This document shows, in pieces, positions 6,003 to 23,649 of a stretch of 64,000 bases of DNA (its first letter is position 1; each line of letters begins with the position of its first letter). A program made the position numbers and the translations under genes. The notes beneath the pieces are model-generated. The model did not search any database and had not been told where the DNA came from. It saw only the letters and a list, made by a program, of their open reading frames with translations. Origin of the DNA: an uncultured Acidimicrobiaceae bacterium (GTDB lineage: Bacteria > Actinomycetota > Acidimicrobiia > Acidimicrobiales > Bog-793); assembly GCA_963841155.1 (NCBI GenBank), contig CAWJBM010000005.1, positions 264,475 to 328,474 of the forward strand, read 5' to 3'.

Positions 6003-6116
6003 CAACGCCCCTGACCCACGAGGGCGCCGCACACCAGAGGGCCGTGGTGAGCACAGAGGGGAAGGCCGGGCTGGAGGAAACCCCGGCAACCACAGGGGTT
6101 CCCCCAGGTCACTACC

Positions 6117-6161
6117 GGTGGGCCGTACAAGACTTGAACTTGTGACCTCTTGCGTGTCATG
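6117..6161. repeat. Island att repeat: displaced 3' part of tRNA-Val (anticodon loop to CC)
   Basis: 45 nt 'ggtgggccgtacaagacttgaacttgtgacctcttgcgtgtcatg', identical to 23651-23695. Confidence 0.85.
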
Positions 6162-6268
6162 TAAGAGACAGCCGTTTGCTCAGTGTTGTGCAGTGCTGCA
6201 AGGTCCTGATACGTCCAGGTCAAAGCATTGCCGGGCTGCGTGCCATGCCGTCTTGTGTTGTCCTGCGT

Positions 6269-6320
6269 TGGTTGCAGTTGGCGGTTAGCCGGGTTTTAGG
6301 TTGCAGTGTTAGGTTGCAGT
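6269..6320 (+). promoter_or_regulatory. Cluster of three (T)AGGTTGCAG repeats, putative integrase arm-type binding sites
   Basis: 'tggttgcagt' 6269-6278, 'taggttgcagt' 6297-6307 and 'taggttgcagt' 6310-6320, about 110-160 bp inside the left att repeat. The same 9-mer recurs at 8043 and 23583. Confidence 0.45.
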
Positions 6321-6324
6321 TCAG

Positions 6325-6359
6325 GCAAAACAAAACCCCCAGCCTCGAAAGACTGGGGG
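6325..6359 (-). terminator. Rho-independent-type terminator for the int operon (minus strand)
   Basis: 7-bp GC stem 'cccccag'/'ctggggg' (6336-6342 / 6353-6359). On the minus strand it is followed by 'ttttgttttg'. It lies just downstream of ORF 6387-6800. Confidence 0.6.
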
Positions 6360-6386
6360 CTTGCCGGGAAGGCTTGGAGATCTTGA

Positions 6387-6800
6387 CTAGGGCGTGTGGT
6401 GCATCACGTCTGGCCCTGACTCCCAGTCCGGTACATACGGACCAGGGCATGGTTCCGGTGGGGACCGCACGAAGTCAGGATCTTGGAACCAGTGGACCTG
6501 ACCACTCGGGTCCACAAGAGCCACCGTGTTTGCTGGTGTCCAGCCTGTGAATCTCGGCCAGTCCGGCAACACCACCGGCTTGCTACGCGCAAACTCACCG
6601 TGATCCGAGAACGGTCCATGAGTGACGTAACCGCCGCCGTCGATAGTGCAACAGCACCGAGTGCATCGGTGCTGTAGCGCATACCAAGGGCCGTGAAGGT
6701 CACCGATCACCTGGTGATCTCTCGACAAACTGTGAGAGCATCCGCACTCGTCCGGTTCACCCAGTATCTCATTGAATGTTGCTAGAACAGGGTCCATCAC
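6387..6800 (-). CDS. Cys/His-rich hypothetical protein translationally coupled to the integrase
   Basis: 137-aa ORF whose ATG overlaps the int stop (ATGA). Contains 'CGCSHSLSRDHQVIGDLHGPWYALQHRCTRCCC'. Followed by the terminator at 6325-6359. Confidence 0.5.
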   Translation of the reverse strand: MMDPVLATFNEILGEPDECGCSHSLSRDHQVIGDLHGPWYALQHRCTRCCCTIDGGGYVTHGPFSDHGEFARSKPVVLPDWPRFTGWTPANTVALVDPSGQVHWFQDPDFVRSPPEPCPGPYVPDWESGPDVMHHTP

Positions 6801-7927
6801 GACAGCACCAAGGCCAGAGCGTCGGATGCACTGCTGTTCCGTGCTGCCTCACTGGTCCACCCGTACACGTCTGCCGTGATCCTGATGCTGGCGTGTCCGA
6901 GATTCCACGAGATTTCCTCAAGGGGTACACCAGCCTCACGAGCCAAGACTGCGTAAGTGTGTCGGAGGTCATGAAAGTGAAGGACCGGAAGGATCAGCCG
7001 CTGGCTGACGTTGCGGAAATGCCTCCTAACCGTTGAGTCACAGATTGGCGTACCCTCACGACTCGTGAACACCAGGCCGTCAGTGCCTTGTGTTTCCTCA
7101 AGGTTCTGACGGACTTGCTGCTCTCTCAGAATGTCGATCACGCCTGCTGTGATCTTAAGAGCCCTACGTGATCTCGGGGTCTTTGGGGCTACCCGCTCAT
7201 GGTCGGTACGGTCCATCGTTCCTGTGACTGTAAGAGTGCCCGCCTCCAAATCGACATCTGCCCACCGAAGGCCGAGAATCTCACCTTCCCTAAGGCCGTT
7301 GTGCAAAGCCAGTACGTAAACGGGCTTCAGCCAGTCTCCATCAAGTTCGACCAATAAATCCTTGGCCTGTTGGGCAGTGAGGACAGGACGTTCAGTGTGC
7401 CTTACAGACACTGACTCCACTTGAGCAGCCACGTTCTTCCGAACGTAATCACGCTGAACCGCTTGGTTCAGTGCTGCAACCAGGATGGACCAGGCACGCT
7501 TTTGCGTGCTCGTGCTGGCGGGCTTGCCATCCTTTCGCCCTGTGGTGGCAAGGGCTTTGAGCATGGCCTCGACATCCTCAGCGGTAAGGGCTGACAGTCT
7601 GATCCGGCCCAGAGTGGGCTTGATGTAGGCCTCGATCACGTCTTGGTAGTTGCGGATGGTTGCGGGCTTGAACTTGCCCGTACCCGCCTTGGCTTCGAGC
7701 CAGCGGTCCAGCCAATCCCCAATGGTTTGTTCGGGTCCAGGCGTTGGCTTGATCCCAGCCTTAACATCCTCTAGTGCCACTTTCCGCTTGGAAATGGCTT
7801 CTTTCATGGTCTTCCCGTACACGTACTTTCGTACACGCTTGCCGCCTGTGGTGGGTGGAAGCTCATACGTGGCAAGCCACAAGCCATCAGACTTTCTCTG
7901 ATGGACTGCGGTTCCTCTTCTTGGCAT
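6797..7927 (-). CDS. int: Tyrosine-type site-specific integrase of the island
   Basis: C-terminal catalytic signature 'HDLRHTYAVL ... LGHASIRITADVY'. N-terminal SAM-like domain 'WLDRWLEAK'. Start taken at 'MPRRGTAVHQRKSDGLW'. Confidence 0.9.
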   Translation of the reverse strand: MPRRGTAVHQRKSDGLWLATYELPPTTGGKRVRKYVYGKTMKEAISKRKVALEDVKAGIKPTPGPEQTIGDWLDRWLEAKAGTGKFKPATIRNYQDVIEAYIKPTLGRIRLSALTAEDVEAMLKALATTGRKDGKPASTSTQKRAWSILVAALNQAVQRDYVRKNVAAQVESVSVRHTERPVLTAQQAKDLLVELDGDWLKPVYVLALHNGLREGEILGLRWADVDLEAGTLTVTGTMDRTDHERVAPKTPRSRRALKITAGVIDILREQQVRQNLEETQGTDGLVFTSREGTPICDSTVRRHFRNVSQRLILPVLHFHDLRHTYAVLAREAGVPLEEISWNLGHASIRITADVYGWTSEAARNSSASDALALVLS

Positions 7928-8042
7928 CTCTAGCCTTCCCTTGACTCTGACCTTTGCCACTCCCCTGCCGCAACGCGAGTCTACAGGCAAGCGCGCCCCT
8001 TGTCCACTCGCCCGTTTGTATTGGGCTTTGCCAGTTCGGCTG

Positions 8043-8051
8043 TAGGTTGCA
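8043..8051 (+). promoter_or_regulatory. Additional TAGGTTGCA copy between int and xis
   Basis: 'tgtaggttgcacc' in the 175-nt int-xis spacer. Confidence 0.35.
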
Positions 8052-8101
8052 CCTAGGCTGCCTGTGCCTCAGTGCTAGCAAGCCCTTCGGCCATCCGTCA
8101 G

Positions 8102-8299
8102 TTATGCTACCCACGACTCCTGTCCCTCTAGGAACTGGTGAAGGGCTTTCTTCGACACTAGGTAGCGCCGTCCAAGCCTGCGGCAACCTGGCAACTCGCC
8201 AGAGACAGCTAGTTCGTAGGCGAGTGAGCGGCCAATCCCAAGCAACTTCGCGGTTTCCTCAACGGTGTACGTAAGACGTTCTTTCGTGATAGCCGACAT
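8102..8299 (-). CDS. xis: Excisionase-family / MerR-like helix-turn-helix DNA-binding protein
   Basis: 65 aa. 'YTVEETAKLLGIGRSLAYELAVSGELPGCRRLGRRYLVSKKAL' is typical of the Xis/AlpA-type HTH_17 fold. Sits immediately upstream of int. Confidence 0.75.
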   Translation of the reverse strand: MSAITKERLTYTVEETAKLLGIGRSLAYELAVSGELPGCRRLGRRYLVSKKALHQFLEGQESWVA

Positions 8300-8802
8300 G
8301 GCAGATCCAATCGTTCGTAGTCATTCGGAACGACTGCGCCACGCAATGTCAGTATTCGTGGGTTCTGCCAGTCGGGTCAGTTGCCCAAAATACCTCCGGC
8401 AACCGCCAACACACAAGATATCACACCGGGACCGGCGCCGTCAACGGGTGCCCCGCCCAACGTTGCCTTTCCCATCATCGCTCACGCCCAACTGACGTTT
8501 TGCCTTATCAGAGCCGGTATATGCCTGTATAGACAGATTTGAGGCCTGAGATGCATAGCACTATAGTGTGTGGCACTCCATAGCTATTGCCGTAGCGCCG
8601 AAACCGACTTGCGTTTTACCTGCTCAGAGGGGTGCTTGCTGGTAGAAATTGAGTCCCTCGGTGTGTAATACTTACCTGCGTACCCGTGCTCCGAGAGTCA
8701 ATCAGTGCAGTGCCTACCGCGCTCGTGCGAGTTGATCGGCTATCGAGGGTGCCGTTGTTCCGCACGCCGCCGGTCCCCGTCAGCATCGGTTAGGAGAACA
8801 AG

Positions 8803-9972
8803 ATGTTAGATCTAGATGATGCTTGGGTGGACGTCGAGCTTGAGGCTGAGCAGGCGATGTGGGATGCGCCACACACGTCATGGGATGCCGTCAACACACG
8901 GTGGGCGCTGGAAGGTCTGTTGGATGACCCGCCGCCGGTGTACTTGAGCCGAACAGATGGCGTACTACTGCTGTACAAGGGGAAGGTTTCTGACATCCAC
9001 GGTGAGCCGGAGGCGTGCAAAGGCTGGTTCGCCTGCTATGCGGCGACTGACGTCCTCGCCCGTGGAGACGGTGTCGTCTACGTGGACTTCGAGGACAGCA
9101 TCAGAGGAATCCTCGGGCGGATGCGGAGTCTTGGCGTTTCAGACGAAGTCCTGCTAGACGGCTTCTCGTATGTCGGACCCACGGAGGCCTTGCAATCAGC
9201 AGCCGTCGAAGGCGGAAAGGACACGAGGCTCAGCTTCGAGAGGACTCTCAGGGTGTTAAGTCGGCCAGTCGGGCTGGTCGTGCTCGACGGGGTCACGCAG
9301 GCGATCGCCAATCAGATGATGGGTTCCTCGAACAGCAATGATGACATCGCAGCTTTCTACCGGGACATGCCGAGGATGATTGTCCACGATGAGAACTGTG
9401 CGGTACTGCTCGTGGACCACGTCACCAAGGACGCTGGCAATCCACGGTTCGCCATCGGCGGGATGATGAAGCTCGCCGCGGTGGACGGCGCATCGTTCCA
9501 AGCCGAAGTTAAGGTGCCGTTCGGCCGTGGGCGGAATGGCCTCGTCCTCATCAAGGTCGCGAAGGACAGACCCGGCTACGTCCGTGAGCATGGCGGTGAG
9601 ACTGATGGCCTCCTACAGCAGATTGCGGACATGCACCTCGAATCCGATGCTGAGACGGGTGCGGTCACGGTTCGGCTTGAGCCACCCATCGACGATGCTG
9701 GACTGCTCCGGATTCGCATGGGCATCGTCTGTCGAGCGTTGCAGAACAACGCCCTGCTCAACGTCCCAGACCCTGGTCTCTCGCTTACTAAGCTGCGGGG
9801 CGTCCTTCGTGGCTGCGGTAACGACAAGAAGGACGAGGTCGTTAAGGAACTGGTTCGGCGCAAGTACGTCCGAGTCGAGGTCCAGGGGATTGGCAAGGCG
9901 ACGCTGCACTTCCTCATAGACCCTCAGCTAGACATCTTGGCGGCACAGATGGCCGAGTTTCCACCTCGATAA
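8803..9972 (+). CDS. RecA-fold ATPase of the AAA_25/RepA-like type (island replication/maintenance), atypical P-loop
   Basis: 389 aa. P-loop-like 'GEPEACKGW', Walker-B-like 'GLVVLDGV' and 'LLVDHVTKD' resemble plasmid RepA/AAA_25 proteins. RBS 'aggag' upstream. Confidence 0.6.
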   Translation: MLDLDDAWVDVELEAEQAMWDAPHTSWDAVNTRWALEGLLDDPPPVYLSRTDGVLLLYKGKVSDIHGEPEACKGWFACYAATDVLARGDGVVYVDFEDSIRGILGRMRSLGVSDEVLLDGFSYVGPTEALQSAAVEGGKDTRLSFERTLRVLSRPVGLVVLDGVTQAIANQMMGSSNSNDDIAAFYRDMPRMIVHDENCAVLLVDHVTKDAGNPRFAIGGMMKLAAVDGASFQAEVKVPFGRGRNGLVLIKVAKDRPGYVREHGGETDGLLQQIADMHLESDAETGAVTVRLEPPIDDAGLLRIRMGIVCRALQNNALLNVPDPGLSLTKLRGVLRGCGNDKKDEVVKELVRRKYVRVEVQGIGKATLHFLIDPQLDILAAQMAEFPPR

Positions 9973-10039
9973 GGCTACCCTGCCACATATGTGATATTTC
10001 ATCTAGAACCTATGAAGAGTGGTTTGCGACCTGCTCTTG

Positions 10040-10076
10040 ACCCTGCCTGCCCTAGACAGAGTCTAGGGGGCAGGGT
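10040..10076 (+). terminator. Strong hairpin downstream of the RepA-like gene
   Basis: 16 paired bases ('accctgcc..ccctagac' / 'gtctagggggcagggt') with a 2-nt bulge and 3-nt loop, followed by 'tggttgatt'. Weak T tract. Confidence 0.45.
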
Positions 10077-10424
10077 TGGTTGATTAGATGCACATATGAC
10101 AGATCCACTATTTTAGGGTTGCTACGCAGAAGGGTGAGTCTCGGACGCGAGACTGGTATAAAGCGTGGGTTCTCGCCACCCACAATGTCAGCAAGCCATC
10201 AAGCTACCCATAGACTAGCAGATGTATGGGGGGGCGGGTCAAACCCCTATGACCTTGTTGCAAATGTCACCCGCGCCTCAGCAGACAATTTGTACGGGTT
10301 ATTGAGCCTCAACGTTCAATAATCGGTACGGTGTAGCACATAAGTCGACGACGGCTCCGCTTGTACACAGCCAGAGGCCGTCCTTCTGGCAACCCTCGCG
10401 TATCATCTCACCAGGGAGGACGCC

Positions 10425-10601
10425 ATGCCCCGTCGCCGATCACTCACGAGCAACCTCTACCGGGCCGCACGGCTCAGCAACAACGTCCGGGCCGCCTCAC
10501 GTGCTCCAGGCGCCTACGCGAAGCGCGTGGTGCGTCGGAAGACCTACGGCAAGTCCATGGGCGCCACCGGACGGTTTCTGAGGATCTTCGGACTCAAGTA
10601 A
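10425..10601 (+). CDS. 58-aa highly basic small protein, unknown function
   Basis: ATG preceded by 'agggagga' at -5 to -11. Translation 'MPRRRSLTSNLYRAARLSNNVRAASRAPGAYAKRVVRRKTYGKSMGATGRFLRIFGLK'. Below the ORF-track length cut-off. Confidence 0.5.
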   Translation: MPRRRSLTSNLYRAARLSNNVRAASRAPGAYAKRVVRRKTYGKSMGATGRFLRIFGLK

Positions 10602-10611
10602 GGAGGCGGCT

Positions 10612-10758
10612 GTGGAGATCAGATGCGCCGAGTGCGGTTGTGTCGTCGACCGAGGCGTCCGCGTCACTCCCTGCGGCGATCCGGAGTGTTGCTGCAAAGA
10701 GCTTCCGGTTCGTGGGGGCGACAAGGATCAGGCACGCGAGACAGGGCGGATTAAGTAG
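10612..10758 (+). CDS. 48-aa seven-cysteine (zinc-ribbon-like) micro-protein
   Basis: GTG start 4-5 nt after 'aggagg', which overlaps the upstream stop. Translation 'VEIRCAECGCVVDRGVRVTPCGDPECCCKELPV...'. Confidence 0.4.
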   Translation: MEIRCAECGCVVDRGVRVTPCGDPECCCKELPVRGGDKDQARETGRIK

Positions 10759-10917
10759 GCGGCGCTCTGGCGGACCTGCACCCGGGGCTACGGTATCTCG
10801 CCCCCAGACCCGGGTGCCGGCTGAGAGCGACTTTACTACCAGTTCGCTCCGGATGTTCGTGGACGGTGTAACCACTCCCGGTGCTCAAGGTGACGGCGCG
10901 AGGGACCGATGAAATGA

Positions 10918-10972
10918 GTGGGTGCACGACCTCAACTTGCCTGCGAGGGTGAGCAGCGGGTCGTGCACCCAC
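10918..10972. repeat. 14-bp perfect inverted repeat (possible bidirectional terminator or protein-binding site)
   Basis: 'gtgggtgcacgacc' 10918-10931 and 'ggtcgtgcacccac' 10959-10972, between convergent small ORFs. Confidence 0.4.
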
Positions 10973-11093
10973 CCGTTTAAGTATCCCGCGGGACCGGGCA
11001 TGGGTGCGGCAGAGTTTCGGATCGCAACGTGAAGCGGGTGCACGCGCTCGCCTGGCTCTAATAGCCCCGCTACCTTCAGCCTCGCGGAAGATT

Positions 11094-11330
11094 TCAGGGG
11101 CTTAGAAACGATCTGCGACCAGGGATTTCGCGCCGCCCCAACTCCCTCAACGCCCGCACGAGCTGACTGAGGATCGCGAGCGCCCGCTCCCGACTGAGCC
11201 CGCTTGCGGCCTGCGGGGGGAGCATGGCGATCGAGCGACGGAGCACCTCGGCTTCCTCCGGCGACAGGTCGGCCACGTTCCTACAGTACCGAACGTGTGT
11301 TCGACGCGCTAGGTGAATTCGGAGCCGCAC
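11094..11330 (-). CDS. Hypothetical 78-aa protein (weak call)
   Basis: ORF lying between two ~37-bp direct repeats. No recognisable motif. Confidence 0.3.
   Translation of the reverse strand: MRLRIHLARRTHVRYCRNVADLSPEEAEVLRRSIAMLPPQAASGLSRERALAILSQLVRALRELGRREIPGRRSFLSP
11098..11134 (+). repeat. Imperfect direct repeat, copy 1
   Basis: 'gggcttagaaacgatctgcgaccagggatttcgcgcc'. About 31/37 identical to 11357-11393. Confidence 0.5.
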
Positions 11331-11356
11331 CTCTACCCCTCGACGACGGCTTTACC

Positions 11357-11393
11357 GGGCTTAGAAACGACCTGCGAACAGGACCTTCGCGGC
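11357..11393 (+). repeat. Imperfect direct repeat, copy 2 (70 nt upstream of the TIGR04255 gene)
   Basis: 'gggcttagaaacgacctgcgaacaggaccttcgcggc'. Confidence 0.5.
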
Positions 11394-11462
11394 TCAGTTC
11401 GCAGATCGGCTCGCTGCTGTTGGCTGCGCCACTACGCGATTACGAAAGCATGACTCCCTCAA

Positions 11463-12329
11463 GTGGGAGAAGCGCCTAACATAATCCCTGCCGTGGCCGA
11501 TCCACTCGTACGTCCTGCTCACCTTGCCGATTATGAGAACCCTCCCATCAGGGAAGCTGCTGTAGGCGTTGAGTTCACGCGGCTACTGGGCCTTCGTCAG
11601 GCACACTTAGGTCTCTACTGGGAACGCATACGGTCCGACTATCCGGTTGCCGAGGACTATCCCGCGCTTCCGCCAACTCAGGATTCCCCCGTTCCGATTC
11701 TCATGCCCGCGTTTCAGTTGAATCTTGGAGGCACTATACCGCCCCAGCGGGCCATTTTTGCCTCGATGGAAAAGGATCGACTCGTTCAGGTACAAAACGA
11801 CCGTTTCGTTATTAACTGGCGAGGCCCTGGAGAGACCTATCCACGCTTTGATGCCCTCCGCGAACGCTTTAAGACTCTGTGGCTTGACTTCTCGGAATTT
11901 GTCACCGAAGAAGGCGTCGGTTTAATAGTGCCATCGCGCGTGGAAATAGCCTATGTAAATCACATAATGAAGGACTCTCCTGTGGAGTTCCTGAACTTCG
12001 CAGAACAATTTGCGGTCTCGGCACCTGGAGTCGGATCCAAACCGTCAGACGTTCAGGTAATGCTTCGATACACGATCAACGTCGGCGACGGTCAGGAGGG
12101 CTCGCTTCAAGTTGCAGTCAATCGGCCCGTTCTTACACCATTTGCAGTCAGTCAGCTAATTGGCGGTTGGGTACTCACCCTCGTTTTTCGTGCGCCGATT
12201 CCGGATCCAACAGCGCCAGAGGCGGTTTATCCATTACTGGATCGTGGTAGAGAAGTTATCGACCAGACCTTCGAGGACTTGACACGACTTGATGTCCAAC
12301 GCGATGAATGGAAGAAGAAAGTTGTCTGA
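11463..12329 (+). CDS. TIGR04255-family protein (uncharacterised, sporadically distributed family)
   Basis: 288 aa. N-terminal signature 'YENPPIREAAVGVEFTRL...AHLGLYWERIRSDYP' matches my memory of TIGR04255 proteins ('Y.NPPI.EAV..v.F', 'hlG.fw'). Confidence 0.65.
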   Translation: MGEAPNIIPAVADPLVRPAHLADYENPPIREAAVGVEFTRLLGLRQAHLGLYWERIRSDYPVAEDYPALPPTQDSPVPILMPAFQLNLGGTIPPQRAIFASMEKDRLVQVQNDRFVINWRGPGETYPRFDALRERFKTLWLDFSEFVTEEGVGLIVPSRVEIAYVNHIMKDSPVEFLNFAEQFAVSAPGVGSKPSDVQVMLRYTINVGDGQEGSLQVAVNRPVLTPFAVSQLIGGWVLTLVFRAPIPDPTAPEAVYPLLDRGREVIDQTFEDLTRLDVQRDEWKKKVV

Positions 12330-12807
12330 GATAACAGCGTTCTATTCGCCTGCTCTGCTGCAATCGTGGCAGGTTGCCACATCGGCTTCGCCGAGCGTGG
12401 TCATCGAACCATGGAGTCCGGAACACGCGCCAAACTGGCTGGGAGAGGTCGCGACCAGACTCAGTGAGCTAGAGCAGCTGGCTGATGGCTGGGATGGTCA
12501 CGGCGCTCTCGCTCCGACCAGTGACGTGCTCGTCGATTCCTTCAGCGAATTCGGCTCGATTATTCCGAGTGTCGCTCCTGAGCCGGCAATTTTTCCGACA
12601 ACCGTAGGCGGCGTCCAGTTCGAGTGGACAGTCGGAGACATCCACGTTGAACTCGAATACCTACCAGGCGGTGTCGTCGACGGATGGGCAGGCGATTCAC
12701 ACGGTCAAGAATGCTGGCACGGCGCCATGGCCGAGATCGGGTCCGCAGTATCTCCGTGGTTGGAGCGATTGTCGCGGTTCGTCCTCGTCAGAGATTTAGG
12801 TTTGTAA
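12292..12807 (+). CDS. Hypothetical protein, second gene of the TIGR04255 operon
   Basis: About 171 aa. Overlaps the upstream gene by 26-38 nt depending on start (ATG 12292 or 12304). Motif 'LEQLADGWDGHGALAP ... FPTTVGGVQFEW'. Confidence 0.55.
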   Translation: MSNAMNGRRKLSEITAFYSPALLQSWQVATSASPSVVIEPWSPEHAPNWLGEVATRLSELEQLADGWDGHGALAPTSDVLVDSFSEFGSIIPSVAPEPAIFPTTVGGVQFEWTVGDIHVELEYLPGGVVDGWAGDSHGQECWHGAMAEIGSAVSPWLERLSRFVLVRDLGL

Positions 12808-12815
12808 GTGCGCTA

Positions 12816-13328
12816 ATGCCGGTACCAGACGATTCAGTAGTGCCGGACTGGGAGCTTCTGATTCGCCGTGTGATCATTAACAAAAACTCTGTGAAGGTGA
12901 ATCAGGACGGACGACTACAGTTCACAACAGCCGGCTTTAAGCTGGACGCTGACGGAGTCTCTGTCTATCGGGCACAGTTGTTGCACCTTCTGGGTCTTAG
13001 GCCGAGTGACACCGTCGGTGGCCGAAAGGATGGCGCTCCCGTTGGGATAATGGTGGGACATGTCCGGGCTGCAGGGGCGGGAGTCGTGCCCGACCCAGTT
13101 CCGCTACCGGTTGCCGTCATCGACCCCGCTCACGCGCTCCTCAAGGTCGACGGCAAGCCCTCTCTCTATCACGTGCTTGAAAGAGCATTCATCCTCTCGC
13201 GCACGGTGGTGGTGCAGGGCACACCGCCAGAGGTTGTCGTCGTTGAAGTACCTGAACAGGAGAAGGTATCCAGGCCGCGGCGTTTCGGCCGCTTGTGGTT
13301 CCTGCCGCGTCAGCGTCCACGCGAGTAG
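12816..13328 (+). CDS. Hypothetical protein, third gene of the TIGR04255 operon
   Basis: 170 aa from ATG 12816, 8 nt after the upstream stop. 'DWELLIRRVIINKNSVKVNQDGRLQFTTAGFKLDADGVSVYRAQLL'. No family recognised. Confidence 0.55.
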   Translation: MPVPDDSVVPDWELLIRRVIINKNSVKVNQDGRLQFTTAGFKLDADGVSVYRAQLLHLLGLRPSDTVGGRKDGAPVGIMVGHVRAAGAGVVPDPVPLPVAVIDPAHALLKVDGKPSLYHVLERAFILSRTVVVQGTPPEVVVVEVPEQEKVSRPRRFGRLWFLPRQRPRE

Positions 13329-13711
13329 TTCGAAGGGAGTTCCCGACAACAACGTGACTACAACTCCCGGCCAAACTCCGCGAAGGATGGTGAGCTGCAA
13401 AGCCACCTCCACTCAGGTAAACATTACGGGCGGGCGCCGGAGGTCGCGTTGATCCTCGTCAGGGTGCTCGCCGAGGCGTCGGCCACCCACACCGAGCCGT
13501 CCCCCACGGCGAGCCCGGTCGGTTCCGGGCCGACGTGCGAATTCCGAGCCATTCCGTACACCCGTTCCGATCGAATCCGTACACCGATTCCGACGTTTTC
13601 GTACACCCGTTGAGGAGACCCTCCTAGCAGCTGGCGCGAGGTAGCCCCTGCTCGGCAGGCTCCTCGGACAACCCGTCCGAGGAGCAACCGTTGACCAGAC
13701 CCCGTGTCGCC

Positions 13712-15232
13712 ATGCGCAAGATCCGAGATGTCCTCCGGCTGAGCTTCGGTGAAAAGCTCAGCCGCCGCCAGGTGAGTGCCTCGCTCGGCATTCCCGTCAC
13801 CACCGTGTCCGACCACGTCATGCGTGCTGTGGCGGCGGGCTTGTCCTGGCCGCTCCCCGACGAGCTCGACGACCACGGCCTCGAGCAGTTGCTGTTCCCG
13901 CCAGTGGTGCCGAAGGGCATCGTCCGGCCCACTCCGGACTGGAAGTACGTCCACCTCGAGCTGCGGCGAAAGGGCGTGACCCTGCAGCTTCTCTGGCTCG
14001 AGTACCGCGAGGACCATCCCGACGGTTACGGCTACAGCCAGTTCGCCAACCTGTACCGGGCCTTTAGGGGACAAGTCGACGTCGTCATGCGCCAGGAGCA
14101 CCGGGCGGGCGAGAAGCTCTTCGTCGACTTCGCGGGCCAGACGATCCCGATCTACGACCGAAGAACCGGCGAGGTGACACTGCAAGCCGAGCTGTTCGTC
14201 GCCGTCGCCGGGGCGTCGAGCTACCTCTACGCCGAGGCCTTCGCCTCCCAGGAGCTCCTGTACTGGGTGACCGCCCACACCCACGCCTTCGAGTTCATGG
14301 GGGGATGCCACGAGATCGTGGTCTGCGACAACTTGAGATCGGGCGTCACCCGGCCGCACCGCTACGAGCCCGACGTGAACGCCACCTTCCAGGAGATGGC
14401 GGCCCATTACGGCGTCGCGGTCATCCCGACTCGGACCTACAAGGCCCGGGACAAGGCCAAGGCCGAAGCCGGAGTGCTCTTGGCCGAGCGCTGGATAATC
14501 GCCCGGCTGCGCCACAGGCACTTCACCTCGCTCGGCGAGGCCAACGCCGCCATCGCCGAGTGCGTCGATGCCATCAACTCCCGCCCGTTCAAGAAGCTGG
14601 ACGGCTCCCGCAAGATCCTGTTCGAGGCTTTGGACCGCCCGGCGCTCAGGCCACTTCCGCCCGAGCGTTATGAGTTCGCCACCTGGAGGCAGGCCAAGGT
14701 CAACATCGACTACCACATCGAGGCCGACCACCACTACTACTCGGTGCCCTACCAGCTCGTCGGCAAGGTCGTCTACGTGCGCAGCTCCGCCACGACCGTC
14801 GAGGCCCTCTACAGCTCGAAGCGTGTCGCCTCGCACCCCCGCAGCTTCAAGCGTGGGCAGTTCACGACCGATCCGGCCCACATGCCCGAGTCGCACCGGC
14901 GCTATGCGCAGTGGACCCCGAGCCGCATCATCAACTGGGCGAGCGCCACCGGCCCCTCGACCGCGAAGCTGATCGAGGCGCTCATCAGATCACGGCCCCA
15001 TCCCGAGCAGGGCTTCCGCTCCGCGCTCGGCATCATCCGCCTCGCCGATCGCTACGGCACCGAACGCGTCGAGGCGGCGTGTGGCCGGGCACTTCACCTT
15101 CGTGCCTACTCGTATCGAAGCGTGCAGTCGATCCTTGCCCACTCGCTCGACAAACAACCCTTGCCCGAGGCGCGCCCGAATCGTCCCCATCCCCGCCACC
15201 ACAACGTGCGCGGGGCGACCTACTACCAATGA
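13712..15232 (+). CDS. istA: IS21-family transposase IstA
   Basis: N-terminal HTH 'MRKIRDVLRLSFGEKLSRRQVSASLGIPVTTV'. DDE core 'FVDFAG...VVCDNLRSGV...', 'ARDKAKAE'. ATGA overlap with istB. Confidence 0.9.
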   Translation: MRKIRDVLRLSFGEKLSRRQVSASLGIPVTTVSDHVMRAVAAGLSWPLPDELDDHGLEQLLFPPVVPKGIVRPTPDWKYVHLELRRKGVTLQLLWLEYREDHPDGYGYSQFANLYRAFRGQVDVVMRQEHRAGEKLFVDFAGQTIPIYDRRTGEVTLQAELFVAVAGASSYLYAEAFASQELLYWVTAHTHAFEFMGGCHEIVVCDNLRSGVTRPHRYEPDVNATFQEMAAHYGVAVIPTRTYKARDKAKAEAGVLLAERWIIARLRHRHFTSLGEANAAIAECVDAINSRPFKKLDGSRKILFEALDRPALRPLPPERYEFATWRQAKVNIDYHIEADHHYYSVPYQLVGKVVYVRSSATTVEALYSSKRVASHPRSFKRGQFTTDPAHMPESHRRYAQWTPSRIINWASATGPSTAKLIEALIRSRPHPEQGFRSALGIIRLADRYGTERVEAACGRALHLRAYSYRSVQSILAHSLDKQPLPEARPNRPHPRHHNVRGATYYQ

Positions 15233-16002
15233 AAGGAACAGACGTGCTCTCCAACACGACCATCGAGGGCCTGCACACCCTTCGGCTCCAGGCCATGGCC
15301 TCCGGCGTCATCGAACAGCGCGAGCAGCCCGACTACGCCGCGCTCAGTTTCGAGGACCGCCTCGGCCTGCTCGTCGACCGGGAGCTCCTCGCCCGGAGCA
15401 ATAGGCGCCTGACTCGCATGCTCAAGTCCGCGAAGCTCAAGGTGCCCGCGGTGGTCGAGGACCTCGACTTCCGCCGTCCCCGCGGGCTCGAGCGGCAGAC
15501 GGTGCTGCACCTCGCCGAGTGCCACTGGGTGAACCAGCACCAGGCGGTTCTCGTCGTGGGCCCGACCGGGGTCGGAAAGACCTACCTCGCCTGTGCGCTC
15601 GCGCACTGCGCGATCCGTCACGGGCACACGGCGCTCTACCTGCGCGCCCCACGGATGTTCGACGAGCTCGCAATCGCACGCGCGGATGGCCGGCTTGCAC
15701 GGCTCATGGCCAGCTGGGCACGCATTGACGTCCTCGTCATCGACGATTTCCTGATCCGTCCGCTCAACTCCGACCAGGCGGCCGACCTGCTCGAGGTGAT
15801 CGAGGACCGTGCCCAGCTGCACTCGACGCTCGTCACGAGCCAGCTCCCGGTCGCCCACTGGCACGAAGGGATAGGAGACGCCACGATCGCCGACGCCGTG
15901 CTGGACCGGCTGTTGGAGAGGGCGAACCGCATCGAGCTCGTCGGCGAGTCCCTGCGCCGGAGCGAGACGGCGACCGCCGCCAAGCCGAGGAACGCCAAGT
16001 GA
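15229..16002 (+). CDS. istB: IS21-family helper ATPase IstB
   Basis: Walker A 'GPTGVGKTYLA', Walker B 'DVLVIDDF' and a typical N-terminus 'LRLQAMASGVIEQ'. Confidence 0.9.
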   Translation: MKGTDVLSNTTIEGLHTLRLQAMASGVIEQREQPDYAALSFEDRLGLLVDRELLARSNRRLTRMLKSAKLKVPAVVEDLDFRRPRGLERQTVLHLAECHWVNQHQAVLVVGPTGVGKTYLACALAHCAIRHGHTALYLRAPRMFDELAIARADGRLARLMASWARIDVLVIDDFLIRPLNSDQAADLLEVIEDRAQLHSTLVTSQLPVAHWHEGIGDATIADAVLDRLLERANRIELVGESLRRSETATAAKPRNAK

Positions 16003-16096
16003 CCGTCCGAGGATGTTCCACGGTCCGGGTCAGCCCGCCGACGTCCTTCGTCACGCCGGAGTGCCTTCTACGAGGTTCACCTCCAAGCCGAGGTGT

Positions 16097-16429
16097 ATGG
16101 CCGTCCGCGCAGCTATGAACGAACGTCGCGACCACTACCTCGCCCCCGCCACAGACAACGACACCGAGTCGGTGCTCGACGAGGCGATCGACTCGCTCGC
16201 GAGGTTGCGTGCCATGGGAGGGCGGGGCAACGCCGGCGTCGATCTTCACCTTCTCACGAGCTTGATCGACGAGGCGACGAGACGGCTGCGCGGCGCCGTT
16301 GCCCGAGCGCGCGTCCAGGGCTACTCATGGGCGGAGATCGCCGATCTTCTCGGAGTCACCCGGGCGAGCGCGTGGCAGCGCTACGCCGGGCGAAGCGACG
16401 ACCCGACGCCGGTCGAGGACAGGCCATGA
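16097..16429 (+). CDS. Passenger HTH protein inside the IS21 copy
   Basis: About 110 aa. C-terminal 'VQGYSWAEIADLLGVTRASAWQRYAG' is a sigma-70 region-4-like HTH. Lies between istB and the right IR. A 45-codon ORF follows with ATGA overlap. Confidence 0.45.
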   Translation: MAVRAAMNERRDHYLAPATDNDTESVLDEAIDSLARLRAMGGRGNAGVDLHLLTSLIDEATRRLRGAVARARVQGYSWAEIADLLGVTRASAWQRYAGRSDDPTPVEDRP

Positions 16430-16889
16430 ACGGCCGGGTGAGGCTGTTTCTCGTCAGCGAAGTCGAGCCGGATCAGCGCGACATTTCGCCGCGTTCGACG
16501 GCGAGCTCCAGTGCCTGCAAACTATCGATCAAGCACCGCGAAGGAGGTGAGCTAACGGGATAGGCCCCCAAGCGTCGGCCGCTGCGCGGCCTCCGACGCC
16601 CGCGTCCGAAAACGTCGGACTGGGTGTACGGAATCATCGGAATACGCAGCCGACGGGCCTCGTGGCCGGAAACCGCTTGCCCGAGATCCAGGTCGGGTCG
16701 GGTCAGTGGTCGGGGCAGGGCGTGAGTGGAGGCCAGCCGATTGTGCGTCCGGCTCTAGCCGCACGTTGTCCACGACAGGCGCCCACGTTCGCCCACTGTA
16801 GGGTGGACAAGGCGCTCTTCTCTTTGTGGGTCTCGACGATGCCGCATCTGCCCAGCGCTTGCCGACATAGCGATCGCATCTGAAAGTAG

Positions 16890-19800
16890 CTAGCTTCTAC
16901 CGGCTCGGAATGCCTCAGGCCAACCGCCGTGCTGCTCGATCAACTGGTCAATCTGAACCATGACGCGCCCTGTCTCCCTGACACCCGCGACAATCCTTCC
17001 GTAATGTTTGATGTCCGCCTTAGACAGTGTTCGACCCCGGCGATCCTTGAGCCATTTCTCGCAGACTCGATAACCCCCAACCCGGAACTTCCAGACCGCC
17101 TCGTCCACCCCGCCAAAACCGTTACCGCTCGCCCCGGCGATCACATCGAGCCACACGCTACCGTCCGACCAACCCACGCGACCCACTACCGGATTCCTCC
17201 TACCGGTGTATGTGCAGCCTTTGTGGCCAAGCTTCGACGACTCCATAAGGTGCAGCGAAAGAAGTTCCTTGCCGAGCCGAACCAGCTCCTCAAACAGCCT
17301 TCGGTTCTCCGTTACGGGTATTCGTGGAAAGTCTAGCTGAAGAGCTAACCGAAAACGCCGCCTATACTCAGGCGAATTCAAGACGGCATAAACGTATGCA
17401 AACACATCGCCATCAGGAGGCTCTCTCCCGAGCCTTTCGCGAAACACAGCGATATCGAGATTAGAAGTCATTGGCGAAATCCCAGCACCAAAGGCGCCCA
17501 ACCCCCTTGGAACCCTCTGAGGAAAGGAATAGCAGTTAACCGAGCTTGTATTCGATAGAAAAATTACGTCGGCGAACGTTCGCGAAACGAACACGTGCGC
17601 GAAAACAGAATCCTTTACGATCTTCGTGGTCAGCAAGATCGGCGTTCCGTCGACACAAGATTTAAGCTTCGGCACCGCCCGCGTCCAAATCGCAGGATCA
17701 TAGTACGTGAAACGAGTGTCGAAAGGCCTATAAGAGTAGGGCACCACAGCGCTATCACGCAGCGGCCGATTGCTAGGTAAGTCTGCAAACTTCCGACCCG
17801 CCTCGGTCAGTTTATGTCCAGAAGCGATGGCCTCCGACCTCTTGAACTCACGAAGTTTCGCTATCACCTCCTCCGGCGAGAAGGAGACAAGTAGATCATC
17901 ATCCCCAGGCTTGCCGGATACGCTACAGAATCGGAATATGGCAGTCAAACTCGGATATTCACTGAATTCAGGCGTGAGGTCCCCGGCCCATGGGACAAGC
18001 AAGAAATACGGAGCGGTCGGTACGATACTTACAGATGACACTCCTCTCGCTGCGGAGAGCGCGTCATACTTGTACTTTCGTTCACCGACCAGTTCTGAGT
18101 ACTGAACTGCCTTATCGAAGGGTCCCTTCGACACCAAGCTAATAGCGACTCCCTGTAGAATGTCAAAGACGTTTTGATCTCCCACGCCTCTGCTACCAAG
18201 GAAGTCGACGTAACCACTGCCGTGTAGGTTGACAACATGGACGACCGCGTTGTCCATCAAAAGCTGTTCTCTCATTCCTCGGTGTATCCTGCCGGACAGG
18301 TACGTGTTATTGGTGATCATGCCGGATATGCCGAGACCTGACTGCGAAAGTAGGCGTTGCGCAAGCGCAATGAACTTAATGTAATCGTCAGAGAGCGGCT
18401 GGATATTCTTCTCTTCCTGAACGGCTTGCTTGTAGCTCTTGATTAATGCCGTGGCAAAGTTGCCCTTGTTCGCGGATGCTCGTGAATAGGGAGGGTTTCC
18501 GACGACAACCGTGAAGCGGCGGTCCCGCTTGATCTTGCTGACCGCCTCCGCTTCATGAGCAAGGGCCGGAATCGCAAACTCAAACTTCCCCGTGAAGTCG
18601 TAGGGAGGCTCAAGGGAATTCGTCAGGTAGATGCGAGCCCGCTGGTTGCTGCGGAAGCGATAGCCCGTCTCGTAAAGCTTCAACCCTGTCTTGAGGTGCG
18701 CTATCGCGTAGGGGGCCATCAGGAGCTCGTAGCCGTACAGGCGGGGCAGCAGGTGCTCCGGCACGTAGTCGTTCCATAACGTCTGGATCTTCCTCTCGTC
18801 ACACCCATCAGACTTCCACCTCGCGGTGAGCGTCTTGTGAATAACGTCGATTACCTCGACGAGGAAGGTGCCGGTTCCGGTGGCGGGGTCGAGAATCTGG
18901 ACGAAGGCTTGATCCGGGTTGACGCCAGTAGGAATCTGGAGCTCCTTGTGTAGCTTGGCCATCTCACGCCACGTGGTCGTGTCGGCAAGACCGTCCTCAA
19001 GGCCGAACTTTGTACGTAGCATTTCGTCTACAGAACGCACAATGAAGGCGACTACGGGCCGTGGAGTGTAGAAGACTCCTCGACTTACCTTTTGTTTCTT
19101 GTCGTAGGCGGCCAAGAAGTCCTCGTAGAAGTGGATGACAGGGTCCTCGTTAGGGTTCCTGTCCCCGAAGTCCCGAATGACTGCCTCCATGTTGGCGTCG
19201 TCGAGCAGCTCTACCACCTCGCCGACCCCCAACTCGTCGAAATCGATTGCAGGTCCATCAGTCTTCGTCCGCCGACCGCCTGTATAGAGGAAGGTCTCCA
19301 TCAACTCCTTGAGGAACGGATTGGTCATCGGCATCGCGAGAGCCGCGTCGTGCGCACGGTCTGTCTTTGGGTTGGCCACCCGCGCCGAGAGCAAGCCGTA
19401 CGCGATGGTCTGCGCGTACATGTCCGCGAAGCCAGGTTCGTCCAGATCGTGCACGAGAGCCTCGCGGAAAGCCGCCATCAGCTTGGTGAGCCGCCCATTC
19501 TTCGTCTCGATTGCCAGCGCTGTCTGGATGCGGTCTCGAATCGCGCGAGCGAGCACTGCCAAGCGGATCGACAGCTCACGAGAAGTCGTGATGACCTCGC
19601 GGTGTCGGACCGTGAAAGCTGCAGCCCAAGCAGCGCGCCATGACTCCACATTCCTGTCGTCATCGGGCCATGCGAGATCACGCACCAAATGATCGGCTAC
19701 GTCGTCCAGGTGCAGCAACGTATCGAGGTTGTCCCAGCCCAGAACCTTTAGCGTCGGCAGACTTTGTCTGGTCGCGTCCTCGGAAAAGTGTGCAAATGTT

Positions 19801-20192
19801 ATCTGGCGCTCCGAGCCCTCCCCGTAGTTGGAGATGAAGAGCAGATCGTTCACCGCCCACGCGGTGCGCTCCGCCTTATTGGCAGATGCACGCTTCTTGA
19901 GAGCCACCTGGCTGAGAATTCGTCGCAACGCAACTACAGGCAACCGCTTTGGTTCGAACTTGATGAAGAAGATTCCCCAGGGCTGGTTCACGGAAAGCGG
20001 ACGTAAGCGCTTTATCTCCTCGATCTTGGCTGCACTCTTCGCGTCGATCCCGAGTTCCTGGGCTGAGTACTCAAACGTCATCTCCTCGAAGTCAGCCGTA
20101 CCGATCGGCCAATCCATTTCATCGTGCAGAAATCGGAGCAGTTGGGGGAACGTACGAATCCTCTGCAGCTGAGCACGGTAGTTGCCTTGCAT
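16890..20192 (-). CDS. N6-adenine DNA methyltransferase / target-recognition protein of a split type ISP-like R-M system
   Basis: About 1100 aa from 'MQGNYRAQL'. SAM motif I 'ILDPATGTGTFLVEVI', motif IV 'VVVGNPPYS' (gamma-class order) and C-terminal 'LQLDFPRIPV...LGKELLSLHL', typical of type ISP/PglX-like C-terminal domains. Start is 4 nt after the helicase stop. Confidence 0.85.
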   Translation of the reverse strand: MQGNYRAQLQRIRTFPQLLRFLHDEMDWPIGTADFEEMTFEYSAQELGIDAKSAAKIEEIKRLRPLSVNQPWGIFFIKFEPKRLPVVALRRILSQVALKKRASANKAERTAWAVNDLLFISNYGEGSERQITFAHFSEDATRQSLPTLKVLGWDNLDTLLHLDDVADHLVRDLAWPDDDRNVESWRAAWAAAFTVRHREVITTSRELSIRLAVLARAIRDRIQTALAIETKNGRLTKLMAAFREALVHDLDEPGFADMYAQTIAYGLLSARVANPKTDRAHDAALAMPMTNPFLKELMETFLYTGGRRTKTDGPAIDFDELGVGEVVELLDDANMEAVIRDFGDRNPNEDPVIHFYEDFLAAYDKKQKVSRGVFYTPRPVVAFIVRSVDEMLRTKFGLEDGLADTTTWREMAKLHKELQIPTGVNPDQAFVQILDPATGTGTFLVEVIDVIHKTLTARWKSDGCDERKIQTLWNDYVPEHLLPRLYGYELLMAPYAIAHLKTGLKLYETGYRFRSNQRARIYLTNSLEPPYDFTGKFEFAIPALAHEAEAVSKIKRDRRFTVVVGNPPYSRASANKGNFATALIKSYKQAVQEEKNIQPLSDDYIKFIALAQRLLSQSGLGISGMITNNTYLSGRIHRGMREQLLMDNAVVHVVNLHGSGYVDFLGSRGVGDQNVFDILQGVAISLVSKGPFDKAVQYSELVGERKYKYDALSAARGVSSVSIVPTAPYFLLVPWAGDLTPEFSEYPSLTAIFRFCSVSGKPGDDDLLVSFSPEEVIAKLREFKRSEAIASGHKLTEAGRKFADLPSNRPLRDSAVVPYSYRPFDTRFTYYDPAIWTRAVPKLKSCVDGTPILLTTKIVKDSVFAHVFVSRTFADVIFLSNTSSVNCYSFPQRVPRGLGAFGAGISPMTSNLDIAVFRERLGREPPDGDVFAYVYAVLNSPEYRRRFRLALQLDFPRIPVTENRRLFEELVRLGKELLSLHLMESSKLGHKGCTYTGRRNPVVGRVGWSDGSVWLDVIAGASGNGFGGVDEAVWKFRVGGYRVCEKWLKDRRGRTLSKADIKHYGRIVAGVRETGRVMVQIDQLIEQHGGWPEAFRAGRS

Positions 20193-20196
20193 TGCC

Positions 20197-23100: not shown

Positions 23101-23364
23101 AAGCCGCACCTTGGACCGCTTTCGAACTGCCTCCAAGAGCGCCTGCCTCGTCGGCCGGCTGAACTCATCCCCCATGAGGATTCGAATCTTGTCAAGTTTC
23201 TGCCAGTCGCTGTCGAGCTCCAGCAGCGCCCCAATCTCGAAAAACCCTGTGGCAATGTCGAAGCTGGTCGCGATCCCGCACCACTCGCGGAGGTACCTCA
23301 GGCCGGTCCAGCCAGAAATGCTGTTGTCGACGATGAAGAGGTCCCTGCCGGTCCGTTCAGCCAT
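20197..23364 (-). CDS. PLD-family nuclease fused to SNF2/SF2 helicase
   Basis: 1055 aa. N-terminal single HKD motif 'FHAKAYI...LVGSSNFT'. Helicase motif I 'DGVGLGKTF', II 'DEAHHFRN', VI 'QRIGRVDRR'. Confidence 0.85.
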   Translation of the reverse strand: MAERTGRDLFIVDNSISGWTGLRYLREWCGIATSFDIATGFFEIGALLELDSDWQKLDKIRILMGDEFSRPTRQALLEAVRKRSKVRLDVSLEEEKHENPFLQGVDAIVHALQTGRIECRIYNQEKFHAKAYITRARLEVVGAQALVGSSNFTRPGLTQNIELNIQVQSSREVAQLQAWFDQHWSEAKDVTPDLLHVITRHTAEHTPFEVYAKALHEFFRGHELTAGEWDETQSKMFPALDLYQKEAYGSLMKIARQFGGAFLCDGVGLGKTFVGLMLIERLVLHENKRVLLFAPKGAKESVWEPHLRDRLPHIGGIGGGADFSNLAVFSHTDLNRKGDFPERFARVTELADVVIIDEAHHFRNPGRTGDSDTNGDRRSRYRRLYDVLGGGREKTLYMLTATPINNQLSDFRHMAELFTRREETYFARTLGVNSLTAHFKAMDKTLQLSLGDAPEAQQEGLLEEAHDVLAGDVIFRSLVVQRSRAYARASQIQETGAATVFPERRPPQVADYSVRKSYGQVLDLFEQAFEKKNPLFSLPMYYPLAYYIGPDDSVDPREENRQRQVVGLIRTQFLKRFESSVYAFERSLDTLLRKLFAFVQVHSETEAEKSRLDRWKRQHAAVIGYHPDSQLTLWPEGGEEEDADEDADEDVVSPELLEDVRHLPPDEYNLSEMLQESMLDLDQIAKFLEHTQQFTPAQDDKVQKLIRLLKSKDLARRKVLIFTEFADTARYLERQLSNAGILGVSQIDSATKTDRTEVIKRFSPYYNRSSTAVLAGQGKSEIRVLISTDLLSEGLNLQDATRLINYDIHWNPVRLMQRIGRVDRRLDPVIEAALIRDHPEIAEDRGHVAFWNFLPPDELKGILSLYTQVTRKTLLISRTFGIEGRKLLTPEDNYEALREFNARYEGTKTTVEDMRLEYQALLNDDETLVARLDALPGSVFSGRKRPTRGRRGVFLCYALPAFDHDLGRFTLEAGPTSWFLCDSDPGEIFDVPGDILESIRSKPNTPRCCVTGADALKDARDTVLKHIKNTYLKRLDVPLDAPKPALKCWMELNEG

Positions 23365-23582
23365 CCCTTGTCACGATACGTCGCACCCAGTCAGTGGGTG
23401 AGCTTTCCCAGAGCAGCGGCCCTCACGCGCAGTCAACAAGGCAGCGTCCGACTCAAAACCTGGCAACTGCGCCAGACTCAACCAAGTCGTCTTCTTGGGC
23501 GCTTCCCGGCGTCAAAAGGCACAGAAATGGCGGGGTCTGATGCCATCGGTTGAAAGCAACCTTACGAGCGGCCTGGAAGCTG

Positions 23583-23591
23583 TAGGTTGCA
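23583..23591 (+). promoter_or_regulatory. TAGGTTGCA copy about 60 bp inside the right att repeat
   Basis: 'tgtaggttgcagtg'. Same orientation as the copies at 6297, 6310 and 8043. Confidence 0.35.
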
Positions 23592-23649
23592 GTGATGGTT
23601 GTAACAGCCACCATTCTTGGATTGCTGCCCGACAAAAACTGCCTCTGAA

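Follow-up and report, generated by a model that had tools for sequence, protein, structure and literature searches.

Proteins of the TIGR04255 family are described in NCBIfam as uncharacterized and sporadically distributed, and one of them heads a compact set of three genes in the genome of an uncultured Acidimicrobiaceae bacterium (GenBank assembly GCA_963841155.1, contig CAWJBM010000005.1, positions 264,475 to 328,474 of the forward strand; this stretch of 64,000 nucleotides [nt] is referred to as the window, and coordinates of the three genes and their surroundings are positions in it). Do these genes, located at 11463 to 13328 on an integrative island, form a functional unit, and if so, of what kind? 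An original prediction, made from the sequence alone, had proposed a tightly coupled operon that might be an undescribed defense or toxin-immunity system. We found that the three genes (the trio; g1, g2, and g3) are a co-inherited, translationally coupled unit that is clearly a relative, judging from profile comparisons, of the phage defense candidate PDC-M32, and that the trio is probably a mobile defense or toxin-antitoxin-like module. The genes are as follows (aa, amino acids).

11463 to 12329, plus strand: g1, TIGR04255-family protein of 288 aa (start at GTG 11463) or 278 aa (start at GTG 11493); proposed variable input module
12289 to 12807, plus strand: g2, adaptor-like protein of 161 to 172 aa (172 aa from TTG 12289; likely start, TTG 12322)
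12816 to 13328, plus strand: g3, small protein of 170 aa; proposed effector

Conservation of the trio as a unit

A scan of 185,579 species, each represented by a single genome, with an alignment of g1 recovered 277 relatives, corresponding to about 0.15% of species genomes, and the genes downstream were counted for the best 80 of these. Directly downstream of g1, g2 was found at 76 of the 80 loci and g3 at 73. Five of the seven loci without a g3 match are contig ends (two of these also lack g2), and at a sixth, L077, both g2 and g3 are divergent yet detectable. Among the 75 informative g1 loci, which are those with enough downstream DNA, the full trio is therefore present in 74. The remaining one, L079 in Burkholderia paludis (NZ_JPGL01000049.1, 7965 to 9705), is the sole informative locus with unrelated partners: its TIGR04255 protein, which belongs to this subfamily too, precedes two small proteins of 163 and 176 aa that have no Pfam match and no similarity to g2 or g3, which suggests that TIGR04255 proteins are able to partner with other cassettes. 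In the trio subfamily of TIGR04255, the next two genes are thus nearly always g2 and g3, partners that had not previously been assigned to the family.

The same picture was obtained from the other end of the operon. When the g3 alignment was used for an exhaustive HMMER search, 49 cluster representatives of about 130 to 160 aa were obtained, and in all seven whose loci were looked up, g2 lies upstream, as does g1 where the contig extends. Across the nine independent g3 lineages examined, g2 is directly upstream in every case, with g1 next upstream wherever the contig is long enough. A word-indexed homologue search gave two to four relatives per protein, and the contigs of the g2 and g3 relatives carry the same three genes, with order kept, in two unrelated settings. 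The full trio also stands directly after a MobF relaxase gene on a conjugative plasmid of Mycobacterium paragordonae. The co-occurrence of the three genes in other genomes, on which the original prediction depended, was thus borne out in 74 of the 75 informative g1 loci and in all g3 loci, which have g2.

The spacing of the genes is conserved as well. At every one of the 73 complete loci, the g2 stop codon and the first g3 residue that could be aligned are 3 to 62 nt apart (median, 32 nt), and tight coupling of g2 and g3 can therefore be regarded as universal. A conserved fourth partner was rejected, as no neighbor is recurrent: when 693 neighboring open reading frames (ORFs) were clustered, the largest family recurred in only 6 of the 73 loci. 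From the near-universal co-occurrence, the tight spacing, and the lack of a recurrent neighbor, we conclude that the trio is self-contained, sporadic, and mobile.

The closest relatives of the trio (L001 to L004), from peat and soil metagenomes, have a fourth same-strand gene of 171 aa (10556 to 11071 of these loci) after g3 and ahead of an integrase gene. This gene is not conserved in other lineages, and its slot is taken in the window by an IS21 insertion. At three further loci (L068, 7971 to 8781; L072, 7938 to 8846; L065, 9341 to 9880), g1 or g3 is split by a frame change or an in-frame stop codon, and these copies could be pseudogenes or metagenome assembly errors.

Gene boundaries and base composition

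The ORFs on the plus strand agree with the three same-strand genes of about 288, 171, and 170 aa that had been predicted, and they are real genes rather than chance ORFs, because homologues of all three, in the same order, occur in dozens of unrelated genomes. Further in-frame starts of g2 are found at ATG 12292, ATG 12304, and TTG 12322, and the overlap between g1 and g2 varies from 8 to 41 nt with the start codon picked; the overlap of 26 to 38 nt given in the original prediction corresponds to the two ATG starts. We favor TTG 12322, and with it a short overlap, because the two genes overlap by 8 nt in the nearest homologous operon (L001) and because a purine-rich stretch precedes this codon. 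The g2 stop at 12807 and the g3 start at 12816 leave the 8-nt spacer that had also been noted. The G+C content of the trio is 56.6% (53.5% for g1, 57.4% for g2, and 59.6% for g3), compared to 65.7 to 66.7% in the chromosome flanking the island, placing it about 10 points under the host value and in line with the earlier claim of a lower G+C content. A scan for promoters and terminators gave no signal above background.

Just 5′ of g1 is a 35-nt direct repeat (11098 to 11132 and 11357 to 11391; 86% identical, 259 nt apart), the first copy of which overlaps the 3′ end of a minus-strand ORF (11094 to 11330; 78 aa) for which no family match was found. The repeat could be a regulatory site or the remnant of a duplication.

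Relation to PDC-M32 and other gene assortments

Payne et al. nominated 145 phage defense candidate (PDC) systems from BREX, DISARM, and type I restriction-modification (R-M) loci (bioRxiv 10.1101/2024.01.29.577857), and PDC-M32 is a two-gene candidate among them. In an hmmscan search, g2 matched the PADLOC model of the first protein, PDC-M32A, at profile positions 257 to 327 of 375 (E = 2.7e-12). For comparison at the level of families, deep alignments from all loci (84 to 93 unique sequences per family) were compared with hhalign. The g2 family aligned with the C-terminal domain of PDC-M32A (~95 aa) at a probability of 99.0% (E = 7e-18), and the g3 family aligned with PDC-M32B at 97.8% (E = 8e-13). 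The latter alignment covers 108 columns and brings the conserved Arg, Ser, and His positions into register. The value for g1 and the N-terminal half of PDC-M32A was 0.2%. The possibility that PDC-M32A is a TIGR04255-like domain fused to g2 was rejected on the basis of this last value. On the strength of these three comparisons, g2-g3 is the conserved core common to PDC-M32 and the trio, with the TIGR04255 protein replacing an unrelated N-terminal module.

The likeness thus extends to g2, a homologue of the PDC-M32A C-terminal domain, and to g3, a nearly full-length homologue of PDC-M32B, and also to the organization, since both systems consist of same-strand, overlapping genes and occur on plasmids and islands. 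They differ in that PDC-M32 has two genes and the trio three, and in that the place of the ~250-aa N-terminal half of PDC-M32A is taken in the trio by a separate, unrelated TIGR04255 protein. Genuine PDC-M32 pairs were found as well: a plasmid search with g2 recovered one in Rhodococcus (A, 1.7e-168 at positions 1 to 371; B, 2.1e-41), and others are present in Rhodococcus opacus, Rhizobium, and Limnohabitans.

The definition of PDC-M32 excludes the trio, as a full-length PDC-M32A is absent, the g3 protein of the window falls outside the PDC-M32B models, and there are three genes. That g3 protein had no hmmscan match to PDC-M32B at an E value of ≤1 (a plasmid orthologue reached 0.015), and g1 had no PADLOC match at the same threshold; because of these two results, PADLOC would not call the trio. 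We therefore place it, from sequence comparisons, as a three-gene relative or variant of PDC-M32 and as a defense candidate. The original claim of an undescribed system holds to the extent that PADLOC would miss the trio, but g2 and g3 are remote homologues of PDC-M32 proteins, and the system is accordingly not wholly undescribed.

Two plasmids carry other assortments. On one from Hymenobacter volaticus (L021; NZ_CP095066.1, 2045 to 4950), a split DUF4209 protein (HEPN-type, PDC-S39-like) is found with a g2-like gene and a g3-like gene that is frameshifted, its N- and C-terminal halves lying in different frames; from its sequence, this appears to be a decayed third assortment of the putative adaptor-effector pair. 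DUF4209 is a predicted HEPN RNase in R-M-related operons (PMC3710099). On a plasmid of Streptomyces europaeiscabiei (L019; NZ_CP107843.1, 3959 to 5986), a stand-alone g2-like protein of 146 aa matches the C-terminal domain of PDC-M32A (9e-17). Its gene is the first of four overlapping genes in a cassette, and the other three encode an HTH_31 protein, a 131-aa protein of no named family, and a NERD nuclease-related protein. No g3 homologue was detectable in this cassette.

Predicted properties of the three proteins

Searches of Pfam, PHROGs, and NCBIfam with the trio, 52 g3 relatives, and 10 further relatives returned only TIGR04255 and a weak match of g2 to phrog_30544, and searches of PDB sequences with single proteins and profiles gave no meaningful match for any of the three. 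The trio therefore has no metabolic or housekeeping family match in Pfam or among sequences of solved structures, a result that leaves the original prediction standing on this point. No helix-turn-helix (HTH), ribbon-helix-helix, AbrB, or known toxin domain was among the Pfam, NCBIfam, and PHROGs matches. A canonical type II toxin-antitoxin system was considered and rejected, as there are three genes and neither an antitoxin DNA-binding domain nor a known toxin domain was found.

By its sequence, g1 qualifies as a bona fide TIGR04255 member, as had been predicted: residues 24 to 275 match positions 2 to 244 of the 252-position NCBIfam profile with 68 bits, against a curated cutoff of 30 (E = 1.1e-18), and its homologues in other trios are labeled TIGR04255 by both JGI and NCBI. 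An AlphaFold2 model from a 10-sequence alignment (pLDDT, 73.7; pTM, 0.75) has two beta-alpha-beta(3-4)-alpha repeats. Conserved features include PPxxE, R96, QxQxDRFxxNWR, YPR, ExxYxN, R243, and W283, and the conserved polar residues on strands are E31, R96, Q109, Q111, D113, R114, N118, R120, E161, Y164, N166, and R243. Foldseek matches to the PDB are weak (TM score ≤0.34) and include phosphagen kinases/McsB, S-adenosylmethionine decarboxylase (AdoMetDC), TATA-binding protein (TBP), RepB, and EspG. As these are spread over several duplicated alpha/beta folds, the model permits no assignment of g1 to a fold family.

The g2 protein consists of a variable N-terminal part of ~50 aa followed by a conserved domain of ~95 aa (WDGxGA ... 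PxPxxxPT..GGVQxEW). Conservation is limited to residues of a structural type (W, P, G, and E), and g2 is the fastest evolving of the three proteins.

In g3, a conserved domain spans residues 1 to ~140, and the tail (~140 to 170) is of low confidence and found only in close relatives. The AlphaFold2 model, from a 52-sequence alignment, has a compact mixed alpha/beta core (pLDDT, 88). Over 84 sequences, D5, D6, L15, R17, R18, F41, S49, R84, P94, and H106 are conserved; R17, R18, S49, R84, and H106 are each conserved at 86 to 98% (R17, 95%; S49, 98%; H106, 98%). R17 is on strand 14 to 20 and S49 on strand 47 to 52 of the model, a conserved Glu is absent, and the third invariant residue is H106. 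The motifs of g2 and g3 quoted in the original prediction exist and are exactly those conserved in the families (W68, G107, G108, E112, and W113 in g2; R17, R18, F41, and S49 in g3). Foldseek gave no significant fold match for g3 in the PDB or BFVD; the best Tpt1/KptA entries had E values of 1.7 to 4, probabilities of 0.15 to 0.23, and TM scores of 0.33 to 0.36, and AvrPphF had a TM score of 0.27.

Distribution and mobility

The hosts of the best 80 g1 loci belong to more than 10 phylum-level lineages, including Acidobacteriota, Planctomycetota, Nitrospirota, Pseudomonadota, Actinomycetota, Gemmatimonadota, Chloroflexota, Myxococcota, NC10, and SAR324. The settings of the trio vary: one is a prophage-like element that also encodes an HK97-type protease, an HNH protein, and an integrase, another is a group of genes for serine recombinases and transposases, and in a third the trio is inserted between bipA-like and KAS genes. 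A few defense-type genes among 140 immediate neighbors elsewhere encode OLD/AbiL-type ATPases, DUF499/HmaC, MADS components, AbiEi, DrmC, and a type I S subunit, and PIN proteins, integrases, and transposases are also present. A protein search with g1 gave no phage match, and a nucleotide search of phage and plasmid collections with the trio gave no match.

Proposed function and alternatives

We interpret the trio as an autonomous, horizontally mobile "conflict" module, of the defense or toxin-antitoxin kind, that is a split and reassorted relative of PDC-M32. The remote homology of g2 and g3 to this PADLOC candidate supports the conflict character of the module. We rate the chance that its general class is right as about even, and we hold the mechanistic details with less confidence. 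In this model, g2 would be a noncatalytic adaptor or neutralizer that physically links g1 and g3; the noncatalytic role is proposed because only W, P, G, and E are conserved, the protein evolves fastest, and its N terminus is variable. The g3 protein would be a catalytic effector held inactive within the complex, a role that would fit the conservation of R17, R18, S49, R84, and H106 and the compact, confidently modeled fold. This conserved Arg/Arg/Ser/Arg/His set suggests that the substrate of g3 is a nucleotide or carries phosphate; NAD+, bound in the manner of ADP-ribosyltransferases or Tpt1, is one possibility. The TIGR04255 protein would be the exchangeable input (sensor) module, which upon a trigger (e.g., phage infection or loss of the element) would release or activate g3 and so cause growth arrest. 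The case for a defense role is circumstantial, and we infer both this role and the direction of control. The self-contained module of the conflict kind in the original prediction is thus well supported, but its defense or toxin-immunity function is still hypothetical.

Several observations count against this interpretation. PDC systems, including PDC-M32, are called untested candidates by their authors (bioRxiv 10.1101/2024.01.29.577857). The 140 immediate neighbors are mostly ordinary or housekeeping genes, with defense genes a minority; few viral contigs carry the trio (three IMG/VR matches, two with the full trio), and a plasmid protein search with g1 gave one record. The conserved polar residues on the beta-sheets of g1 far outnumber those of g3 and would also fit an enzyme, and the g2-like domain is elsewhere paired with domains of an effector type, HEPN-type DUF4209 and NERD. 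The roles proposed for g3 (effector) and g1 (sensor) are thus tentative. The resemblance of g3 to ADP-ribosyltransferases and Tpt1 is below any significance threshold (E ≥ 1; TM score, 0.33 to 0.36), and kinship to KptA at the profile level was rejected, as an hhalign comparison with Escherichia coli KptA came back empty. Because the Foldseek signal is weak and the KptA comparison is negative, we treat the idea that g3 is an ADP-ribosyltransferase/Tpt1-like enzyme handling NAD+ or phosphate as a lead from modeling and not as a finding.

In the main alternative, control would run in the opposite direction, with the TIGR04255 protein as a variable toxic effector or enzyme and g2-g3 as a regulatory core, in which g2 would be a scaffold and g3 either a sensor or a type VII-like antitoxin, modifying the effector enzymatically. 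The part that is swapped in conflict systems is usually the effector, and here it is the first module that varies (TIGR04255 protein, N-terminal domain of PDC-M32A, or split DUF4209 protein) and g2 and g3 that are conserved; still, a first protein of 250 to 290 aa and a last one of 140 aa fit a large-sensor, small-effector layout at least equally well. The prediction of DUF4209 as an HEPN RNase of R-M-related operons, and the pairing with NERD, would suit this reading, but the Hymenobacter example cannot discriminate between the two directions because it is decayed, with its DUF4209 protein split and its g3-like gene frameshifted. Similarly, g1 has ~25 residues conserved at ≥90%, many of them polar and on beta-strands, but no recognizable catalytic motif, and the enzymes among its fold matches (phosphagen kinases/McsB and AdoMetDC) are weak hits (TM score ≤0.34) in a mixture of several unrelated folds. 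We regard the opposite direction of control as unlikely.

Less likely are two readings in which phage defense plays no part. A plain addiction module of the toxin-antitoxin type, stabilizing the islands and plasmids that carry it, would agree with small, tightly coupled genes, with a fast-evolving middle protein that has a disordered N terminus, and with copies on an integrative island, adjoining a plasmid relaxase gene, and beside recombinases; the PDC-M32 relative on a Limnohabitans plasmid even sits among RelE/ParE and VapBC modules. Many chromosomal copies have no obvious mobile element within 8 kb, though; simple addiction modules do not typically have three genes or a first protein of 288 aa, and no DNA-binding autoregulator domain is detectable in any trio protein. 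We find pure addiction quite unlikely, noting that one module could serve both addiction and defense. The mostly housekeeping neighbors would suit a nonconflict accessory function, such as that of a small operon for metabolism, stress, or regulation or of an aid to mobile-element transfer or integration, and the fold class of g1 (duplicated beta-alpha-beta-alpha, TBP/AdoMetDC-like) is common in nondefense proteins. This accessory role is very unlikely in our view, given the patchy spread over more than 10 phyla and ~0.15% of species genomes, the foreign G+C content, and the homology to a candidate nominated from R-M, BREX, and DISARM loci; nor does the trio have a conserved, functionally related neighbor or a match to a curated metabolic or transfer family.

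Comparison with other systems

The toxin-antitoxin-chaperone (TAC) system CmdTAC comprises a toxin that ADP-ribosylates mRNA (CmdT), its antitoxin (CmdA), and a SecB-like chaperone by which phage capsid is sensed (CmdC). The trio is similar in having three cotranscribed small genes and, in the logic that we propose, a labile partner that would restrain the effector and a third protein that would couple the system to a trigger; a weaker likeness is the candidate ADP-ribosyltransferase-like effector g3. The trio differs in gene order and sizes, and neither sequence nor Pfam comparisons link it to CmdT, to chaperones of the SecB type, or to known antitoxins. Membership in this class was rejected, since no trio protein has a Pfam match to SecB and SecB is not among the fold matches of g1.

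CapRel, a fused toxin-antitoxin sensor, offers a parallel in that PDC-M32A joins a large N-terminal module and a g2-like domain in one chain, the two positions being occupied by separate proteins in the trio, but there is no homology. As for the ADP-ribosyltransferase-fold toxins DarT and ParT and for Tpt1, the only coherent, if weak, matches of the g3 model are Tpt1/KptA and AvrPphF. The first strand of g3 carries a conserved Arg and a later one a Ser, an arrangement also seen in transferases of the R-S-E type, but the third catalytic position would be His rather than Glu. The structural similarity of g3 to the ADP-ribosyltransferase/Tpt1 fold is not significant, with BFVD giving no match at all.

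Genomic island carrying the trio

The trio lies in a 17.5-kb island integrated at a tRNA-Val gene, together with the following features.

6114 to 23727, no strand assigned: integrative island at tRNA-Val, 17.5 kb, with att repeats, integrase, Xis-like HTH protein, and AAA_25 protein
6797 to 7990, minus strand: tyrosine integrase, at the island end far from the intact tRNA gene
8102 to 8299, minus strand: Xis-like HTH protein, 65 aa
8803 to 9972, plus strand: AAA_25 (RepA-like) protein
13536 to 16648, plus strand: IS21-family element (istA, istB; Pfam rve, Mu-transpos_C_2, and IstB_IS21), between the trio and the R-M-like pair
16890 to 20258, minus strand: type IIG/ISP-type methylase-specificity protein (Pfam Type_ISP_C, Eco57I, and N6_Mtase)
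20197 to 23364, minus strand: PLD+Snf2 helicase (Pfam PLDc_2, ResIII, and Helicase_C)

At each boundary of the island is a copy of a 52-nt direct repeat that corresponds to the 3′ part of tRNA-Val (6114 to 6165 and 23649 to 23700; 96% identical), and the island's G+C content is ~58%, compared to 66 to 67% outside. The IS21 element is complete, with istA at 13691 to 15232 and istB ending at 16002, terminal inverted repeats of a multirepeat type (TGCGAATTCC... / ...GGAATACGCA), and a 7-bp target duplication (GCCGACG); its G+C content of 66.8% is like that of the host and unlike that of the island. Within it, 3′ of istB, is an ORF of 156 aa (16093 to 16563), the gene-caller version of which has weak Sigma70_r4/HTH matches.

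The two genes of the R-M-like pair are convergent with the trio and overlap each other by ~60 nt. PADLOC models identify the methylase as REase_MTase_IIG (8e-153) and the helicase as C3a139, "HKD+Snf2" (4e-57), and no nuclease domain was recognizable in the methylase-specificity protein. From their domains, the pair resembles a type ISP enzyme whose parts are encoded as separate proteins. The repeats, domains, and target duplication all agree with the context originally described, a tRNA island in which the trio is convergent with an R-M-like pair and separated from it by an IS21 insertion.

Implications

With the conservation of the trio, the orphan family TIGR04255 gains its first firm genomic partners, and current PADLOC models miss the trio although g1 relatives occur in at least 277 species genomes from many phyla. 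The trio is one more unvalidated candidate among many, and its biochemistry is predicted only. Even if it proved to be only an addiction module, it would still be a new three-component type.

We speculate, while considering the idea doubtful, that the trio, PDC-M32, and the DUF4209-linked pairs represent one widespread immune architecture, in which a g2-like adaptor may be combined with interchangeable inputs (TIGR04255 proteins, the N-terminal domain of PDC-M32A, or HEPN/DUF4209 proteins) and g3/PDC-M32B may be a new family of small enzymes with an R-R-S-R-H active site and a fold without a significant PDB match, perhaps a very divergent NAD+-using effector related to ADP-ribosyltransferases and Tpt1. 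Such an architecture, if true, would provide a first function for TIGR04255 as well as a new effector family. If the trio is a defense or abortive-infection system, g3 would represent a new effector family without structural precedent, and the swaps of input modules would be a natural experiment on changing what is sensed.

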